Sequence record: MT884006.2
Direction: 5' to 3' (one strand)
DNA: 64,000 nt
Origin: Escherichia phage vb_EcoM_bov9_1
The notes under the pieces are model-generated. The model did no database searches, was not told where the DNA came from, and worked only from the letters and a program-made list of their open reading frames with translations. Positions 18,732 to 26,836 of the stretch are shown here, piece after piece; the stretch's first letter is position 1, and each line of letters starts with the position of its first letter. The translations under genes and the position numbers were made by a program.

Positions 18732-20825
18732 TTATCCTTGAACGAACTTGTAAGGCATGTTTGTAATATCTATGCAAGACGCAATAATTCCAAGAGATGA
18801 TTCTACTTTCTGTTTAATATTTGATGAAACAAATGATGCAAAGTCAACTCTGTCTTCTATTTCAATATCACCTGTCATTGCAGCCAATTCACCAGTTTCC
18901 ATTAAATGGTCTCCATCATAGATTACCGATTCGGTGAGCTCTTCCGTGGTCATAACTTCAGCTTGAATGAGTTTTGTATTATTAGATGTTGTTCCGTCAT
19001 TATTAGAAGCATCGGTTATTTTATTAACTTTGACCATCAATCCACGCGGTAGAATAACTTCAGCTTCTGTTGCTATTCCGAGACTTCCTGGATATACAAC
19101 ATTAACTTTATGAGCTCCATCAATTGCCCATCCTATTTGAACTTTAACATATTCAGGATTTTCTTTATACGCTCTTATTTCGTTTGGATTAATAGTTATT
19201 CCTTCTTCATTTTTATCAACTGTTAATTCATTGCGAGCTTCTGGTTCTAAAAGACCAATACCAGCATGTGTGATTCCAAAACGTCCAAAAATGATAGGAG
19301 TTAAAGAAGTAGATACAAAATTTCTGAAGTAGAACACTTTATTTTTAACTAACGCTTCATATATAGGAGCAGTCATACTTTGAGCACGATAAACTGTAAT
19401 GCCTTCTGGTATACGGTCACCATTTTCAAAAGCTGAATCTAAGTTATTTATAGCAGATTCAATTTCTTTTTCACTCATTACATCGTATCGTTCTGGATTG
19501 TAACGACCTAAAAGAAGATTATTGATGTCAGTATATCCTGATCCACAATACTCTCTAATGCCGCGCTTTTGCGATGGAGTATATTTAGAACCATCACGTG
19601 CAATGGTAATATCAATCATTGGACCTGCACCAATTCCAGAAAAGCTATAAATCATTCGTTTGAGGAATTTAGTTTTTGCTGCGTTCCAGGAATTTTTAGT
19701 TATTTCTTCCCAGACTTCATCTGGCTGCCCTTTACGAGTTTTATTATGTTTATCAAGCCAATTATCTTTATATTCTTCAAATAATTGATTAACAGCTGCT
19801 GCGTATTTCTCTAAACATTTTATTGAAGTAGTTGGTTCATTTTTAATCGCATTAAGAATTACATCTTTAATTTTTTCAGAAACTTCATTAACCTCACTTT
19901 TTAAAAAGAATTTATAGTCATAGTGAAGTTCATCTGCGGTTCCTTCGGCAATAATTTTTGCTGCCTTAGTTTTAGAAGCTAATGAATTAATTCCAAGCTT
20001 CATTTCTTCTGCTTCGGGAATTAAAGGAGCTGTAGCAGGTTTATTGAAATTAGCTGCGGTAGATTCATATTTCTGGAATAATTCGCTTTCAAATCTAGAA
20101 GATTCTAATGACTGACTTTGTGCAATTGCTCTACGGGAAATTTTAACTTTAACGATAACAGCTTGGTCAGAGCGTTTATCATTTTCTTGTGCAATAGATG
20201 CTGCAATTGCCTCATTTTTAGTTACTTGAGCTCCAGTATCTTTATTGATATAAACATCGCCGACTTTCGATTCAACCTTAGTAAAGAGCTCGGTACTAAT
20301 TTCAGGAACTCCTGGAATGTCTTCTAGTGATACATTTTTGCGATGTATAAGAATATATGCGTACTTTTTATCATAATCCCAGAGTTCCTTAAGAAGGACG
20401 TATCTGCCACCTGAACGACTACGGATAAGTCTATCAGCAATAACTTGAATTTGTCGAGCTTGACCAGCAGTTTTAGACTTAAGAATACGAAGCATACAGG
20501 CATCAATTTTATACTGACGCATCGTCTGCATTGCAACAGTAAAAACTGAATTGATGTAATTAATTGGGCTTGGACCGAGACCTTTTAATTTAGCAATTGA
20601 ACCTTTAGCAGTTAATGTAAAAGGAACAATATGCATCATTTTATCGCCCATTTTTAAATCGCGATTAGTATCACCTCCAGATGTATAGGTACATAAACGA
20701 AAGCCTGGTTGTTCAATTGCATCATCAACATGAACTGAAAAAATTTGTGGTATTTTCTTCTTTGGATTTAAGTTTGTAATCGGAAGAGTAGTATCTTCGT
20801 CAAATAATTCTGTAATAAGTTCCAT
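18732..20825 (-). CDS. Alt-family ADP-ribosyltransferase, tandem paralogue
   Basis: 697 aa; same N-terminal 200 aa pattern; R (TVYRAQ), STS (FVSTSL), ExE (TEAEV); 3-nt gap to downstream alt. Confidence 0.85.
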   Translation of the reverse strand: MELITELFDEDTTLPITNLNPKKKIPQIFSVHVDDAIEQPGFRLCTYTSGGDTNRDLKMGDKMMHIVPFTLTAKGSIAKLKGLGPSPINYINSVFTVAMQTMRQYKIDACMLRILKSKTAGQARQIQVIADRLIRSRSGGRYVLLKELWDYDKKYAYILIHRKNVSLEDIPGVPEISTELFTKVESKVGDVYINKDTGAQVTKNEAIAASIAQENDKRSDQAVIVKVKISRRAIAQSQSLESSRFESELFQKYESTAANFNKPATAPLIPEAEEMKLGINSLASKTKAAKIIAEGTADELHYDYKFFLKSEVNEVSEKIKDVILNAIKNEPTTSIKCLEKYAAAVNQLFEEYKDNWLDKHNKTRKGQPDEVWEEITKNSWNAAKTKFLKRMIYSFSGIGAGPMIDITIARDGSKYTPSQKRGIREYCGSGYTDINNLLLGRYNPERYDVMSEKEIESAINNLDSAFENGDRIPEGITVYRAQSMTAPIYEALVKNKVFYFRNFVSTSLTPIIFGRFGITHAGIGLLEPEARNELTVDKNEEGITINPNEIRAYKENPEYVKVQIGWAIDGAHKVNVVYPGSLGIATEAEVILPRGLMVKVNKITDASNNDGTTSNNTKLIQAEVMTTEELTESVIYDGDHLMETGELAAMTGDIEIEDRVDFASFVSSNIKQKVESSLGIIASCIDITNMPYKFVQG

Positions 20826-20848
20826 GTTATCCTCTCTAGTGTTTATTC

Positions 20849-20856
20849 TATTTATA
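20849..20856 (-). promoter_or_regulatory. Late promoter (TATAAATA) for the Alt paralogue pair
   Basis: Minus-strand TATAAATA 23 nt upstream of ATG 20825; GAGAGGA site. Confidence 0.5.
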
Positions 20857-20862
20857 AAATTA

Positions 20863-20878
20863 AAGGCCCGAAGGCCTT
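20863..20878 (-). terminator. Hairpin after the 61-aa ORF
   Basis: aaggccUUCGggcctt on minus strand followed by AU-rich tract. Confidence 0.4.
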
Positions 20879-20881
20879 TAA

Positions 20882-21067
20882 TTAATAGAGAGCTAAAAGA
20901 GTACGATATACTTCAAACTTTGGACCTTTTTCATATGGATCAAATCTTTCCGTGAATTCATCATATGCTAGTTTATCTGGGAATTCAAGAATAACCTGCG
21001 ATACCGCAGTGGAAACATCTCCACCTTCTTTTTGAGCCACGACAATTGTTTCTAAGTAAGCTTTCAT
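20882..21067 (-). CDS. Hypothetical small protein
   Basis: 61 aa; start overlaps ligase stop. Confidence 0.5.
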   Translation of the reverse strand: MKAYLETIVVAQKEGGDVSTAVSQVILEFPDKLAYDEFTERFDPYEKGPKFEVYRTLLALY

Positions 21068-22527
21068 AAACCAGTTACCTCATGAAAATCGCCAAATACA
21101 TCTTCGAACGTATTAGCTTTAGTTTTATCTTCACGTAAACGAATTGCAATTGGAAGAAATAGCTTAACGTAATCAGTACGTCCATCTAATTTTACCCAGC
21201 CGTTGCATTCGCACTCTAGAATTTTTCCAATATAATAATTTTGGTTTTCCATAATGCGAGTACGGTCAAGTTCATGCGATTTTACGCCGGCTTTATCTTT
21301 TAAGCCTGAACCAGCATTTACTTTAATTTTTCCACACTCTGATTCAAGAATGAAACCACCTGCTTTAGTAGGGTCTTTACGGTGAGGATAAATTCCTACA
21401 ATTTTTAAATCAACATCAATTACTTCTTTAAATTTATAAAGATTTTTTGAACGAGCATTTTCCCATAATCCATCGATATTTTTGAGAATAATACCTTCAA
21501 GACCTTGGTCAATATACTTTTTGTAAATTACCTTAGCTTCATCTAGGTTATTTACTACTTGGTTTTCAATTAAAATTACTTTATCATAGCCTGATGTCAT
21601 TTGTTCTAGTTTAGAAAAACGTACATCATATTTTAAACGAAACGCCGGAAGACCGTATATTTCTACCAACGGAACATAATCCCAGACCTGAAACTTCATG
21701 CATTGAGCTTCTTTTTCTGAAATAGTTCCCTTTAAAGATTTATTAGCGATTCCATTAGAAGTAGTACGTGATTCAGCTACTTCGGCGAATTCTTTAGCTT
21801 TACTAATTTCAGGATAAGCATCAAAAAGAAAATCTAGGCCTTCTGGCTCCTTTTCAACTTGCTCATGGTATACCAATTCGCCATCAATTAACACACCTTC
21901 TGGATGAATCTGGCGAGCTTCTGCAGTCATTTTGATTAACTCTTCTTTGAGAAGATCTAATCCTAGATATTCATTACCAGCTCGTGATAAAAGACGAACA
22001 TCATCTAATTCATCACCTCTGACTTCAGCAAAGCACCGAGCTCCATCAGCTTTTAATTGGGCAAAGGCTGGAAATTTAATATTCTTGCTAATGCCTTTTT
22101 CATCATAAGAACTTGCCAGCATTTGAGGTTGTTCAGGAATTAAACCTGGCCAAACTTTGTTTGCAATAGATACTGATGCACCGCATTCAAGGTCTCGCAT
22201 CATCACCCGACGCAAAACTTCAACATCATCTTTTTTACCGTCAGTAATATATCCAGTTAATTCCTCAATTGCCGCATTTCCAGTCAATTTCCGAGTAGCT
22301 AATGTGAATTCAATGAAGTCAAGCATATCGGTAAGAGTCAACATTCCAAAACTCTGGGTAGCAATACCAGGTTTAGGCCATTTCTTGATATAATACTGTA
22401 ACCCACGAGAATAAGTCAGACGATATACTCGTTTGAGCAATTCATTATCTTTATTCTTTTCAAGAATTGCTTGCTTTTGCTTAGTTGAACCAATAGATGC
22501 TATTTCATTCAGAATTTTAAGAATCAT
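21064..22527 (-). CDS. 30: ATP-dependent DNA ligase gp30
   Basis: 487 aa; MILKILNEIASIGSTKQKQAILEKNKDNELLKRVYRLTY; adenylation motif KADGAR. Confidence 0.95.
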   Translation of the reverse strand: MILKILNEIASIGSTKQKQAILEKNKDNELLKRVYRLTYSRGLQYYIKKWPKPGIATQSFGMLTLTDMLDFIEFTLATRKLTGNAAIEELTGYITDGKKDDVEVLRRVMMRDLECGASVSIANKVWPGLIPEQPQMLASSYDEKGISKNIKFPAFAQLKADGARCFAEVRGDELDDVRLLSRAGNEYLGLDLLKEELIKMTAEARQIHPEGVLIDGELVYHEQVEKEPEGLDFLFDAYPEISKAKEFAEVAESRTTSNGIANKSLKGTISEKEAQCMKFQVWDYVPLVEIYGLPAFRLKYDVRFSKLEQMTSGYDKVILIENQVVNNLDEAKVIYKKYIDQGLEGIILKNIDGLWENARSKNLYKFKEVIDVDLKIVGIYPHRKDPTKAGGFILESECGKIKVNAGSGLKDKAGVKSHELDRTRIMENQNYYIGKILECECNGWVKLDGRTDYVKLFLPIAIRLREDKTKANTFEDVFGDFHEVTGL

Positions 22528-22793
22528 TGTTCATCCTTTAGAGTTTGGTTTACAGCTCTATTATAAATCAATTCATCATTAAGCTCAGTCAAAGACCTGT
22601 GGTACGTGGTTCTAACTTTATTTCCTTGCATCCAGTGCTTGACGTAAATGAAACCTTGCTCTACACATTTTTTAAAAATTCGTTCGTCTTTTTGAGCTCG
22701 GAATTCTGGATTGCATCTAAAAAATTGATTTACGTGACCGTAATCACGTGTAGTATTACCTTCATTTTCATAAATAGTGTAAACGACAAACAT
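22524..22793 (-). CDS. Hypothetical protein (30.1-like position)
   Basis: 89 aa; ATG verified. Confidence 0.55.
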   Translation of the reverse strand: MFVVYTIYENEGNTTRDYGHVNQFFRCNPEFRAQKDERIFKKCVEQGFIYVKHWMQGNKVRTTYHRSLTELNDELIYNRAVNQTLKDEQ

Positions 22794-23629
22794 TAGAATG
22801 CTCCTTGGAAAATATTATCACCACTAGTAGGTCTATTATACAAATACTCTATGCCACCGGGTTTAATATAGTTCCATGTCTGAAACGGATGCGTCTGATA
22901 TGGATGATATAGATTATAAGGATTAAATCCAGGAGTTCTCCAGGTAGTGTTCCAAGGAAAAGAATCATTTTTAATCATCTTTTCAATTACATCTTTTATA
23001 GCTTTTTCACTATCAAAACTTTCTTTATTTTCATTCGATGGAAAAAGCTTATTCTCTACATCATTCCATGTATAAACTCGCTGTGCAGTTTTTGGAATAC
23101 TGTCACGCTCCCCTCGAGCCATCCAATAAACAGGAACATTTAATATTTCACTCGCATGATCGCAGTGGTGAGCGAGATCGTCAATATAACAAATTACGTT
23201 ATATTTCTCTTTTGCCTTTTTGAACAACTCTTCTTTTGAAGAATCATGACCACACATCAATACTTCTGAGAAGGCACCAGGAAAAAGAGCATTCAAATTA
23301 AATTGACGATTCAGCAGAGCGTCAATAGAATCACCCAGTGCTGTAACAGCTACAAAATTATAATCTTCTTTTAATTTGTTAATTACACACAGGGCATCTT
23401 TATATGGAGACAAATAGCGAATAAAATCTGAACGATTATACTTTTCGATTAATTTAACACCAAGTTCTTCATCGCAATTAAAGAGCTTACCAGGAGAAAT
23501 AAATTTTTCGTCCTGAATCATTTTTAAAATATGTTCCAACGGAAGATTATATTTTTGGGCAAAATAAGGAAGGCCCGATTGCCAGCTTAAACACACCCCG
23601 TCAATATCAGTCAAAATAGTAGGCTTCAT
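22793..23629 (-). CDS. HAD-superfamily hydrolase-like protein (30.2-like position)
   Basis: 278 aa; N-terminal DIDGV matches HAD motif I (DxDG[TV]). Confidence 0.65.
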   Translation of the reverse strand: MKPTILTDIDGVCLSWQSGLPYFAQKYNLPLEHILKMIQDEKFISPGKLFNCDEELGVKLIEKYNRSDFIRYLSPYKDALCVINKLKEDYNFVAVTALGDSIDALLNRQFNLNALFPGAFSEVLMCGHDSSKEELFKKAKEKYNVICYIDDLAHHCDHASEILNVPVYWMARGERDSIPKTAQRVYTWNDVENKLFPSNENKESFDSEKAIKDVIEKMIKNDSFPWNTTWRTPGFNPYNLYHPYQTHPFQTWNYIKPGGIEYLYNRPTSGDNIFQGAF

Positions 23630-24084
23630 AGAGAGTCTCTTAATAGGTTTAACACATCAATAAATTCAGCTTCGGTTAGTATTGTATCATCTTTTGTTAG
23701 ACCACTAGCCATGCTATGCTTCAAAATTTTTCCTTTAGAGGCTTGTAAGGCATCACGAAACCCCTTGTTTTGAATCGCTGCTTCAAAATATGCATTTGTA
23801 TACAACTCTTTCCATGCTGCAGAGTATCTTGAAAAGGGAATTCCAAGCCAGAAAAGCGTCCCACGGTCCGCAGCTCTTGCATAAGCTCTTCCACTTTGCT
23901 GGGCGGCCAAGCCGGAGAGCCCAAATATACGTTTTTGTTGTTCAACATTTTTCACCTTGCATCCTTGGAGGAATCCTTCAAGACCTCCGAATTGAATACC
24001 ATCCATGACGAAAGGCCATTGGGCGAAATTACTTAATGCACACGATGGCCATCTAAAATTGCTTCTAATCTCTAACTCAGACAT
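23626..24084 (-). CDS. NADAR-domain (YbiA/DUF1768-like) protein (30.3-like position)
   Basis: 152 aa from ATG 24084 (track used TTG 24090); LSNFAQWPFVMDGIQFGGLEGFLQGCK resembles YbiA core. Confidence 0.6.
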   Translation of the reverse strand: MSELEIRSNFRWPSCALSNFAQWPFVMDGIQFGGLEGFLQGCKVKNVEQQKRIFGLSGLAAQQSGRAYARAADRGTLFWLGIPFSRYSAAWKELYTNAYFEAAIQNKGFRDALQASKGKILKHSMASGLTKDDTILTEAEFIDVLNLLRDSL

Positions 24085-24283
24085 TTTCAATACTTATAAT
24101 TTCAACATCAGCCCAATGACCATAGCAAGGAAGACGAAATTCAACTGGCCAGTTAGGGTCCTTTTCTAATATAATAGACTCAACTTGTGGTTCTTCATGT
24201 TCATCAGTATATGGATTTTTATCTGTTACTTTATATGTGACCTTAATGTACTGAATTCCAAAAATCTTATTAATTATATTCAT
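24077..24283 (-). CDS. Hypothetical small protein
   Basis: 68 aa; ATG verified. Confidence 0.45.
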   Translation of the reverse strand: MNIINKIFGIQYIKVTYKVTDKNPYTDEHEEPQVESIILEKDPNWPVEFRLPCYGHWADVEIISIENV

Positions 24284-24477
24284 ACTAATTCCTTTAATCC
24301 GTAAATAGGAGACAATTCATCACCCATACGAAGGTCTTCATTTCCATCTACCCAGGAAACAATATAAGCCTCTTTTATTTGAACACCACTCCATTTAAAT
24401 GGAGGTAGAACCTTAGAAATTAATCCAGGTATACCAACTCCCTTTAATTCAACAGTTTGACCTAAAAAGAATTTCAT
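24280..24477 (-). CDS. Hypothetical small protein
   Basis: 65 aa; ATG verified; overlaps neighbours at both ends. Confidence 0.5.
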   Translation of the reverse strand: MKFFLGQTVELKGVGIPGLISKVLPPFKWSGVQIKEAYIVSWVDGNEDLRMGDELSPIYGLKELV

Positions 24478-24764
24478 TAGAACCTCATCTGAAAACCATG
24501 CGATTTAACATTACCGCCGCCAATATCAGAAATATTAATTTCACGCGCAATTGAAGGGTCAATGTCAATTTCACGATTAAGTTTAGCGATAGCTAAAGTA
24601 TCACGCCCATTTACTGTACGGAATTCTAAAGGACAAACCACATCAACGTAATTTTTAATCGATTCACTGGTAAGCTGCAAATGAGCAGGAAGGTCTTTAG
24701 GTGCCTTTGAGAAAACCACTTCACAAAAATTTTTGCGGGTGTCAAAATAAGTAGTCATAAACAT
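24477..24764 (-). CDS. Hypothetical protein
   Basis: 95 aa; GAGGAAAATATT site. Confidence 0.55.
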   Translation of the reverse strand: MFMTTYFDTRKNFCEVVFSKAPKDLPAHLQLTSESIKNYVDVVCPLEFRTVNGRDTLAIAKLNREIDIDPSIAREINISDIGGGNVKSHGFQMRF

Positions 24765-24805
24765 AATATTTTCCTCAGTAAGGGGCCGAAGCCCCTCATT
24801 TTATT

Positions 24806-25171
24806 TTAAATATCAAATTCGTTAAGAACTACATCAAAGATTGCTTCAAGATGCTCAGGTTTAGCTCTGTTACTCAGAATATGACGAATCCAAGTTTTAA
24901 CCAAAAGCTTGCGATTATCACCATTCCAGCAAGGATGAGTCCCTAAATCGCGTTGACGAAAATCATCATCTAAAGCGATTTTAAAATTTGAACCTTCCAT
25001 TGTGATTGAAACCGTGATGCCATTTTCAAATCGCATATAAACGTAGTTAGGAGTCATATACTGTTCAATTTCGCATACTGATCCATTTTGATGTTTCCAA
25101 AGGCAAATAGTATCAATAGAACCTGCAATACCATTAGAAACATATTTACGTTCAAAGTTGATGTAGTTCAT
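24806..25171 (-). CDS. Hypothetical protein
   Basis: 121 aa; ATG verified. Confidence 0.55.
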   Translation of the reverse strand: MNYINFERKYVSNGIAGSIDTICLWKHQNGSVCEIEQYMTPNYVYMRFENGITVSITMEGSNFKIALDDDFRQRDLGTHPCWNGDNRKLLVKTWIRHILSNRAKPEHLEAIFDVVLNEFDI

Positions 25172-25239
25172 TTTTGTTCTCCGAGATGTTTAATTGCGGT
25201 ACAGGTATATAATATCATATCCTGTACCAAAGTAAACAA

Positions 25240-25572
25240 TTATTTTACTACTTTCCAGTGCTTCATGTCAAGTTTACCGACTTTTTTCATCTTCTCAATT
25301 AAGCGTTCGGCACGTTGGCGAGCTGTAACATAATACCATTCACCTAATTCATTTTGTTCAATTTTTCCAACGATTACTGTATTCAATTCATAAATCCAAC
25401 CAGTAAAGAAATTATGAACTTGAATTGTAAAGGTGAAATCTGTTCCCATACCTTCTGTTGTTTCTACTTCAATAATATCACCTTCAACTGCCATTAAGAA
25501 CCACATAGTTTCGTTATATTCACCATTGAAGCATTTAGCTTTAACTGCAGCGTTCAGATTAATCGTTTTCAT
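25240..25572 (-). CDS. Hypothetical protein
   Basis: 110 aa; AAGGAGAAT site; early promoter upstream. Confidence 0.55.
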   Translation of the reverse strand: MKTINLNAAVKAKCFNGEYNETMWFLMAVEGDIIEVETTEGMGTDFTFTIQVHNFFTGWIYELNTVIVGKIEQNELGEWYYVTARQRAERLIEKMKKVGKLDMKHWKVVK

Positions 25573-25599
25573 TTTATTCTCCTTTGTTTGTGTAAGATA

Positions 25600-25629
25600 A
25601 TACTATCACAAAGGAACCATACTGTAAAC
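25600..25629 (-). promoter_or_regulatory. Early promoter
   Basis: Minus strand GTTTACA - 17 nt - TAGTAT, TGA extended -10. Confidence 0.5.
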
Positions 25630-25644
25630 AACTTTATGCAATCT

Positions 25645-25678
25645 TTGGAAAATAAAAAAGGACTCCCGAAGGAGTCCT
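25645..25678 (-). terminator. Rho-independent terminator
   Basis: aggacuccUUCGggaguccu then UUUUUUAUUUU on minus strand. Confidence 0.55.
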
Positions 25679-25682
25679 CAAC

Positions 25683-25859
25683 TTATGCTTTCTGCTTACC
25701 AAAACGAGAAGCATCATCTCGAAGAACCGCACGTGCTCGGCGCATGATCTTCTCAACAGTTTGATTGATACGAGAGTTCGACCCACGCTTGTAGCCAGCG
25801 CGTTTAGAATCACCAACTTTCTTTTCAACTGCTTTCTTTGCTTTAGCTTGTTTTGCCAT
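25683..25859 (-). CDS. Small highly basic protein, 58 aa
   Basis: ATG 25859 preferred over track start; MAKQAKAKKAVEKKVGDSKRAGYKRG, Lys/Arg-rich. Confidence 0.5.
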   Translation of the reverse strand: MAKQAKAKKAVEKKVGDSKRAGYKRGSNSRINQTVEKIMRRARAVLRDDASRFGKQKA

Positions 25860-26104
25860 TATAAATTCTCTTTTAAATGAAAATGCAGGACTTATTGGCA
25901 TTGCCTGCGCAAGCCCTCAAGGGGAACATAGGTTTTTGGGTATTTAACGACCAGGATAACCATAAACCCGTCATCATTCACATTCAAGAGGTACACCATA
26001 AAACTGCCGGGGTCTTAAAACTATAATGATTCGCAAATCATTAATCAGACAGTTCGATGGCTCCTCGATTTTAGCTCACACTAAGGCAGTGAATCTCCAA
26101 TAAA

Positions 26105-26353
26105 TTACTTCAATGTTACCACAAAGTGACGAACTGCTTTTCGTGCAGCAGAAGCCAGAGGCTTAGCATACTTAAGTTCATCTTTTTCCTGAAGCTCAGC
26201 AGCTAATGCAGTTTGAGCAGGATTTAGATGTTTGAAATAACGCAGGATTTCAAGAGCTTCGGCTTCAACATCAATAGATGCGCCATAGTTTTCGTGACCA
26301 TTATTCCATGCGTTTCGTTGCAGTTCAAGAGCGTGTTGTAATTGTTTAATCAT
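26105..26353 (-). CDS. rIII: rIII lysis inhibition accessory protein
   Basis: 82 aa; MIKQLQHALELQRNAWNNGHENYGASIDVEAEALEILRYF matches T4 rIII. Confidence 0.85.
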   Translation of the reverse strand: MIKQLQHALELQRNAWNNGHENYGASIDVEAEALEILRYFKHLNPAQTALAAELQEKDELKYAKPLASAARKAVRHFVVTLK

Positions 26354-26492
26354 TTAAAAATTCTCGTTAGAGATTAAAACTCGGTAGTCACGTTCTTCTG
26401 AATTTCATCTTCTTTCGACAGATCTCTCAGTTGTAGACTACCACATAGAATTGTTCGGTTAACTTATTATTCCGACACCCAATTCATATTAT

Positions 26493-26500
26493 TATTTATA
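26493..26500 (-). promoter_or_regulatory. Candidate late promoter (TATAAATA) with 140-nt leader to rIII
   Basis: Minus-strand TATAAATA immediately downstream of gene 31 stop; no ORF in the leader. Confidence 0.4.
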
Positions 26501-26836
26501 TCACTTATAAAGACACGGAATAGCTTTATAGTGACAGGTAACAAATTTTTGTTTAATTTCTTTTGGCTGCTTAAGACCCAGAGCTACAAAAGGATGCGGA
26601 ACGTTTCGAATTTGACCAACTGGAAGAGAAGTCAAATCACCAACTTCGCAGAAACCTTCAGGAACATCAGGACCAACAGAGTGAACTACACACAGTTCAG
26701 GAACTTCACCTTGAACACGTTTACCGATAATAAGTCCTGATTCTGTAACTTCTTCATCACCAGCCTGTGCAGGTTCAGAAACTAAAATAACATATTCACC
26801 GACAGCACGAATTGGTAGCTGTTGTACTTCAGACAT
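26501..26836 (-). CDS. 31: gp31 co-chaperonin (GroES analogue)
   Basis: 111 aa; [49 protein letters not shown]. Confidence 0.93.

Follow-up and report, generated by a model that had tools for sequence, protein, structure and literature searches.

The window analysed here is a stretch of 64,000 nucleotides from the T4-like Escherichia phage vb_EcoM_bov9_1 (Tequatrovirus; sequence record MT884006.2). It carries two overlapping genes that correspond to T4 genes 30.3 (adfN) and 30.2. The 152-aa product of the former is a minimal NADAR-fold DNA ADP-ribosylglycohydrolase directed against DarTG1, a function inferred by orthology with the T4 protein, whereas the 278-aa product of the latter belongs to the HAD superfamily. 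We hold with high confidence to the following overall explanation: gene 30.3 is adfN, gene 30.2 encodes a HAD phosphomonoesterase that stands outside the anti-DarTG1 mechanism, and the adjacency of the two genes reflects synteny anchored on the DNA ligase gene. The proposal of the first-pass annotation that the NADAR and HAD proteins form a functional module is not supported: published genetics and the comparative genomic context both contradict it. Both open reading frames (ORFs) lie exactly where that annotation placed them:

23626-24084, minus strand: adfN (T4 gene 30.3), 152 aa; PF08010 (Phage_30_3), E = 3.4e-67
22793-23629, minus strand: gene 30.2, 278 aa, HAD-superfamily phosphatase, by HAD motifs and fold

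The stop codon of 30.3 overlaps the start codon of 30.2 (ATGA). Read along the transcript, the HAD gene lies 3' (downstream) of the NADAR gene, and not upstream of it as was originally described. The start codon of adfN is ATG (position 24084); starting two codons further 5', at an in-frame TTG, would extend the protein to 154 aa. The 2-kb region around the two genes shows 100% identity with Escherichia phage vb_EcoM_bov10K1; 727 phage records match this region, nearly all of them T-evens of Escherichia, Shigella or Yersinia.

The NADARs of T4-like phages were described by Iyer, Burroughs and Aravind as expressed early alongside ADP-ribosyltransferases (ARTs) (PMC9503650). The Ahel laboratory referred to phage NADARs as "also termed gp30.3 proteins", in which the glutamate of the last strand is replaced by histidine. 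In vitro, the E. coli-phage NADAR that this group tested can hydrolyse guanosine-ADP-ribose on DNA, yet in cells it gives no rescue from DarT1 toxicity (PMC11125620). According to another report, the protein tested was that of T4, and NADARs also strip guanosine-linked ADP-ribose (G-ADPr) from RNA in vitro (PMC12945103). Johannesman et al. (Nat Commun 2025) renamed T4 gene 30.3 adfN, for anti-DarT factor NADAR. Deletion of adfN makes T4 sensitive to DarTG1. The allele of RB69 carries a frameshift that costs it the last 15 residues, and this phage is rescued by adfN in trans; the substitutions E36A and K43A weaken the rescue, and purified T4 AdfN takes ADP-ribose off DarT1-modified DNA. The T4 protein is inactive in uninfected cells and gives weak rescue of T5 and Bas25, and a further T-even protein was postulated (PMC11825919). 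The role of adfN has been independently confirmed in a T4 transposon-sequencing preprint, HIDEN-SEQ (10.1101/2025.11.20.689424).

The 152-aa protein is 95% identical to T4 gp30.3 (144/152, aligned end to end), and none of the eight T4-to-window substitutions (R51K, A64S, S67A, Q72A, V82I, P89A, V120I and I125M) falls on a conserved or catalytic position. Its match to PF08010 scores 225 bits against a cut-off of 36 and covers profile positions 1-138 of 138. Searched alone, the protein gave no match to PF08719 (NADAR) up to E = 1, no NADAR assignment in the direct Pfam and NCBIfam search, and no match among PDB sequences; the NADAR assignment therefore required family profiles and fold. We aligned 44 homologues of the gp30.3 family, down to 35% identity. 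PF08719 is matched by 20 of the 44 (best E = 1.5e-7), and some family members carry the JGI name "YbiA (DUF1768 family)". The profile of the 44 proteins had a single match in the PDB, E. coli YbiA 2b3w (E = 0.0034), over residues 29-83 (FSNFAAWPIKVDGKTWPTSEHYFQAQKF), and the resemblance to YbiA thus exceeds chance. It was this resemblance on which the first-pass annotation had based its NADAR reading, and the YbiA string that it quoted is genuine and is covered by this alignment. The single-sequence profile search went against that reading and was overturned by the relatives, the family profile and the fold.

The peptide LSNFAQWPFVMDGIQFGGLEGFLQGCK (residues 17-43) contains the motifs LSNF (17-20) and E36-G-F-x-Q40 (EGFxQ), which, together with H123, are invariant in the 44 family members. 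K43 is conserved in at least 90% of the family, and the window protein reads LEGFLQGCK; both catalytic residues, E36 and K43, are therefore present on the alignment. H123 is located at the end of the predicted last strand (120-123). The AlphaFold2 (AF2) model (pLDDT 93.3, pTM 0.88) has the NADAR fold, with a helical core and small beta-hairpins at its flanks, and its C-terminal helix, residues 138-151, is intact. A Foldseek search of the PDB with this model returned with probability 1.0 only the three solved NADARs, namely YbiA 2b3w as the best match (E = 9.6e-6, TM 0.66), 8bau (Phytophthora NADAR with ADP-ribose) and 8bat (Geobacter lovleyi NADAR); the next match had E = 2.2. The 95% identity and the intact E36, K43, H123 and C-terminal helix identify the window protein as the adfN orthologue. 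The NADAR and anti-DarT reading of this gene is correct, but it has already been published, the anti-DarT role having been demonstrated experimentally for the T4 orthologue (PMC11825919; PMC11125620).

Many T-even AdfN alleles (T2, T6, RB55, RB68 and others) align with the window protein only over residues 1-144, at about 94% identity, and differ in the last 8 residues, whereas the window protein, T4 and RB32 share the same C-terminus. Since the C-terminal helix, which the inactive RB69 frameshift allele has lost, matters for activity, this allelic variation may be functionally relevant. An out-of-frame ORF of 75 aa lies wholly within adfN (23721-23948, minus strand); it corresponds to 30.3' of the T4 annotation ("internal translation") and is kept open in 13 close T-even loci.

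The site between genes 30.4 and 30.2, residues E36, K43 and H123, and the C-terminal helix are common to the AdfN proteins of T4 and of the window. The DarG1-type NADAR antitoxins of DarT1-NADAR toxin-antitoxin systems (for example that of Geobacter lovleyi, 8bat), reported as the clade nearest to phage NADARs (PMC11825919), share with AdfN the fold and the hydrolysis of guanine-N2-ADP-ribose on DNA. Unlike them, AdfN is an orphan without an adjoining DarT, lacks the N-terminal extension, has histidine for aspartate in its last strand, and fails to counter DarT1 in cells that are not infected. YbiA (2b3w; DUF1768, PF08719) and AdfN both have the motifs [LF]SNF and E-x-x-x-Q-x-x-K, whereas their identity is 18% and the last strand of YbiA carries glutamate. 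YbiA has been linked to riboflavin-intermediate N-glycosidase activity and to swarming, and it gives no protection from DarT1 in vivo (PMC11125620).

In the proposed mechanism, the host toxin DarT1 would ADP-ribosylate guanines of the infecting phage DNA and block its replication. AdfN would then cut the N-glycosidic bond between ADP-ribose and guanine, freeing ADP-ribose and restoring a replicable template, so that replication could resume. E36 and K43 would bind and activate the ribose, and H123 would stand for the Glu/Asp of other NADARs. These AdfN steps have been shown for the T4 protein and are transferred to the window protein by orthology. Gp30.2 would act as a Mg2+-dependent phosphomonoesterase, with D8 as the nucleophile that forms an aspartyl-phosphate and D10 as the general acid/base, as judged from its HAD motifs. 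Gene 30.2 is dispensable in the laboratory and, on this reading, has no part in the anti-DarTG1 mechanism; the two are consecutive early genes of the ligase-proximal cluster, and 30.2 stands beside adfN by virtue of their shared place in a syntenic block anchored on the ligase gene.

The 278-aa protein is 97% identical to T4 gp30.2 and belongs to PHROG 420 (function not assigned there). The first-pass annotation had pointed to HAD motif I (DIDGV), which is indeed present at residues 8-12. All four HAD motifs are conserved: D8-I-D10-G-V (I), T96 (II), K132 (III) and D150-D151 (IV). Among 37 homologues, every one of which comes from a T4-like phage, D8, D10, G11 and K132 are invariant, and T96, D150 and D151 are conserved in at least 90%. 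No HAD model of Pfam or NCBIfam matched the protein itself. Its relatives give sub-threshold matches to PF00702 (11/37, best E = 3.5e-4), HAD_2 (6/37) and NT5C, PF06941 (6/37, E 1.2e-4 or weaker). The best PDB match of the gp30.2 profile is the mouse cytosolic 5'(3')-deoxyribonucleotidase 2jao (E = 0.015, residues 5-102 only); in this alignment the D12N-mutated nucleophile pairs with D8, and W16 pairs with the Phe after motif I. Weak matches to thiamin-pyrophosphokinase (E = 0.11 and 0.012) lie far below cut-offs and were rejected as chance.

The AF2 model of gp30.2 has high confidence over residues 1 to ~190 and in one further helix, 207-220, and is disordered from residue 228 on. It predicts a Rossmannoid HAD fold with a cap insertion, in which the HAD core spans approximately residues 1-195 and the C1 helical cap approximately 12-90; in structure comparison the protein is not separable from other C1-cap HADs. 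A search of a 5.8-billion-protein set with the gp30.2 profile returned T4-like phage proteins only and no cellular relatives, and among the family members listed no precomputed HAD-type Pfam domain occurs, the only Pfam match being DUF3045 on protein P0120. A literature search on gp30.2 and gene 30.2 returned nothing relevant. Membership of gp30.2 in the HAD superfamily is secure, its subfamily is at best NT5C-like, closest to 5'(3')-deoxyribonucleotidases, and the protein represents a phage-specific HAD family outside current models. Compared with the NT5C family (PF06941; cdN/mdN structures 2jao, 2i7d and 1q92; S. epidermidis 3bwv), whose model is reached by some relatives below threshold and not by the protein itself, gp30.2 is phage-only, has no Pfam model and bears an extra C-terminal extension of 80 aa. 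Given its C1 cap, which is most similar to that of 5'(3')-deoxyribonucleotidases, a small nucleotide-like compound is the most likely substrate of gp30.2.

The C-terminal tail of gp30.2 (~228-278; 22793-22945, minus strand) is modelled with low confidence, is rich in Trp, Pro and aromatic residues, and carries the motif GG-IEYL-YN-RPT. About half of the homologues (~200 aa) are tailless, and 58 of 120 bear Trp/Pro/aromatic-rich tails of 40-140 aa. Several types can be told apart among these hypervariable tails, each with its own short conserved terminal motif: G-x-G-IEYL-xx-QPT (as here), DLRAYY, LLNKV-ANDS, ALLGMASLPIITG and SLRA[ST]F. Such tails resemble lineage-specific docking peptides. 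P0120 (302 aa, from a Logan assembly) is an apparent gp30.2-gp30.1 fusion (DUF3045, PF11243), consistent with either read-through at the TAATG junction, where the stop codon of 30.2 overlaps the start codon of 30.1, or an assembly error.

The genetic evidence comes from Data S6 of HIDEN-SEQ, in which T4 transposon insertions are compared between a control and a DarTG1 host. Only genes 30.3 and 30.4 are significant in this data set. Mean reads in 30.3 fall from 261.0 to 0.7 on DarTG1 (log2 fold change, log2FC, -7.25, q = 0), compared with 271.5 and 249.8 in 30.2 over 71 TA sites (log2FC -0.12, p = 0.61, q = 1) (10.1101/2025.11.20.689424). T4 adfN is non-essential without DarTG1, with insertions at 27 of 28 TA sites. 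Gene 30.2 is likewise non-essential on K-12, where 72/72 sites bear insertions, and it is neutral in M9 minimal medium (log2FC -0.10), with no conditional phenotype.

The order of genes on the minus strand is that of T4-like phages: alt-like, alt.1, 30, 30.1, 30.2, 30.3, 30.4, then 30.5 to 30.8. The neighbouring genes of the two under study are as follows:

24077-24283, minus strand: gene 30.4, 68 aa, immediately 5' of adfN; phrog_2042
22524-22793, minus strand: gene 30.1 (DUF3045), 89 aa, separating 30.2 from the ligase gene; PF11243, E = 2.9e-63
21064-22527, minus strand: gene 30, ATP-dependent DNA ligase; PF01068, E = 3e-32, and T4 annotation
18732-20825, minus strand: Alt-like ADP-ribosyltransferase gene of a tandem pair, 697 aa; PF03496
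16671-18728, minus strand: Alt-like ADP-ribosyltransferase gene of the same pair, 685 aa; PF03496

The HAD-side context was studied in 77 loci of the gp30.2 family (L082-L158). In 72 of them the ligase gene follows downstream on the same strand at a distance of at most 2 kb, and in 66 of at most 500 bp; the other neighbours are Alt-like genes (56), rIII (53), NADAR (37) and 30.1 (30). The linkage of the HAD and ligase genes is the most conserved feature of the neighbourhood across very divergent T4-like phages, and it may represent either a functional partnership or merely an inherited position beside a core gene. In the former case, gp30.2 could be a nucleic-acid phosphatase, for instance a 3'-phosphatase that heals DNA ends, and could prepare or clear substrates for the adjacent ligase in a conserved two-gene heal-and-seal unit. 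We consider this role unlikely. As a rule, small molecules are the substrates of capped HAD proteins, and macromolecules those of capless ones (Pnkp type). The 3'-phosphatase domain of T4 PseT (polynucleotide kinase/phosphatase) aligns with gp30.2 over ~126-129 residues; however, the Pnkp phosphatase, which works on nucleic-acid ends, has no cap, unlike the C1-capped gp30.2. In addition, dNMP nucleotidases match gp30.2 better in both sequence and structure, PseT is already present in T4, the ligase is essential while 30.2 is fully dispensable, and a position beside a core gene can be inherited as synteny with no functional coupling.

Apart from adfN, gene 30.4 is the sole T4 gene with significant depletion on DarTG1 (log2FC -1.79, q = 0.014), and it is not discussed in the text of the HIDEN-SEQ preprint (10.1101/2025.11.20.689424). 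In T4 it has no effect in M9. The gene is confined to enteric T-even phages, with 719 records compared with 1,509 for the AdfN family, and was found in none of the 63 gp30.2 loci outside the close T-even group. Its restricted occurrence agrees with the T-even-specific activity reported for AdfN(T4), and 30.4 may be a candidate for the T-even factor on which AdfN depends. The stop codon of 30.4 overlaps the adfN start by 8 nt, and a polar or translational-coupling effect on that start is the simpler explanation of the 30.4 depletion. A joint reading, in which gp30.2 is a ligase-coupled capped HAD phosphatase and, separately, 30.4 rather than 30.2 is the AdfN potentiator, has a small chance of being right. 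If so, gp30.2, kept directly 5' of the ligase gene across Straboviridae, would either heal DNA ends that bear phosphate or remove a nucleotide by-product, while the protein's aromatic, hypervariable tail would be a lineage-specific docking peptide.

We regard as very improbable the two-enzyme anti-defence or repair module of NADAR and HAD, in which the HAD protein would process the released ADP-ribose or phosphate products, or would itself be the T-even factor of AdfN. The overlap of 30.3 and 30.2 within one apparent transcription unit speaks for such a module, as does the same genus distribution of the two families (1,509 phage records for AdfN and 1,438 for gp30.2). The requirement of AdfN(T4) for a postulated T-even protein also favours it, RB69, which is rescued, having 30.2 (PMC11825919). 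However, on the HIDEN-SEQ table, with 30.2 unaffected on DarTG1, gp30.2 is rejected as the missing AdfN potentiator, and the module is largely refuted. On the AdfN side, 80 loci of the family on viral contigs were examined: a gp30.2-type HAD gene is present within 10 kb in 21 of them and absent from that range in 59. When the same-strand neighbours within 3 kb were clustered without bias, no AdfN-specific partner emerged beyond the synteny of the ligase block (gp30.2 in 20 loci, ligase in 20). One further cluster, 54-aa ORFs in 20 loci, was rejected as a partner; these are out-of-frame ORFs within the NADAR genes themselves, in distant AdfN relatives, and differ from 30.3'. On the HAD side, a NADAR gene is found within 10 kb in 37 of the 77 loci, directly adjacent in 20, and in that range is lacking from 40. 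As the synteny baseline we took the 63 loci that do not belong to the close T-even group: 58 have the ligase gene and 24 a NADAR gene, a linkage no higher than that of the unrelated accessory ORFs 30.5 (23) and 30.7 (24). Among T4-like phages the two families are near-core and have matching genus profiles, which explains their co-occurrence without functional coupling.

There is scarcely any probability that AdfN mainly reverses or tunes ADP-ribosylation by the phage's own Alt-like and ModA/ModB enzymes, or removes guanosine-linked ADP-ribose from RNA: adfN does lie 3-7 kb from two Alt-like genes, and the early co-expression with ARTs and the in vitro activity on RNA cited above point in this direction, but adfN has a direct DarTG1 phenotype and is non-essential without DarTG1, and alt insertions have no DarTG1 phenotype (log2FC -0.01). 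The arginines of proteins, on which Alt and Mod enzymes act, are not known to be NADAR substrates. The first-pass annotation was right in counting two ADP-ribosyltransferases in this genome; the tandem Alt-like proteins (685 and 697 aa) match PF03496 with E = 1.8e-20 and 9.3e-38. A single alt gene occupies that position in the T4 annotation stretch that was compared.

Two further signals were observed on the minus strand upstream of the two genes. Genes 30.9 and 30.8 are separated by a strong terminator-like hairpin (25679-25658) that has a 9-bp stem (GAGGACTCC...GGAGTCCTT) and a T-run after it, and a sigma-70-like site with an 11/12 match (TTGACA-18-TAAAAT) lies 5' of 30.7 (25271-25242). Together they suggest a single transcription unit from 30.7 to the ligase gene. 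Promoter-like sites in the region 20800-26600 show no excess over shuffled sequences (24 vs 19.5 +/- 4.0), and hence no internal adfN promoter is claimed.

In summary, a function that was shown experimentally in 2024-2025 could be inferred from raw sequence alone, with no new biology added. A dispensable HAD phosphatase stays beside the ligase gene in nearly all T4-like phages, and 30.4 may be the T-even factor of AdfN. For the annotation of this phage family the negative result is useful: an anti-DarT module should not be annotated to include the HAD phosphatase that neighbours adfN.

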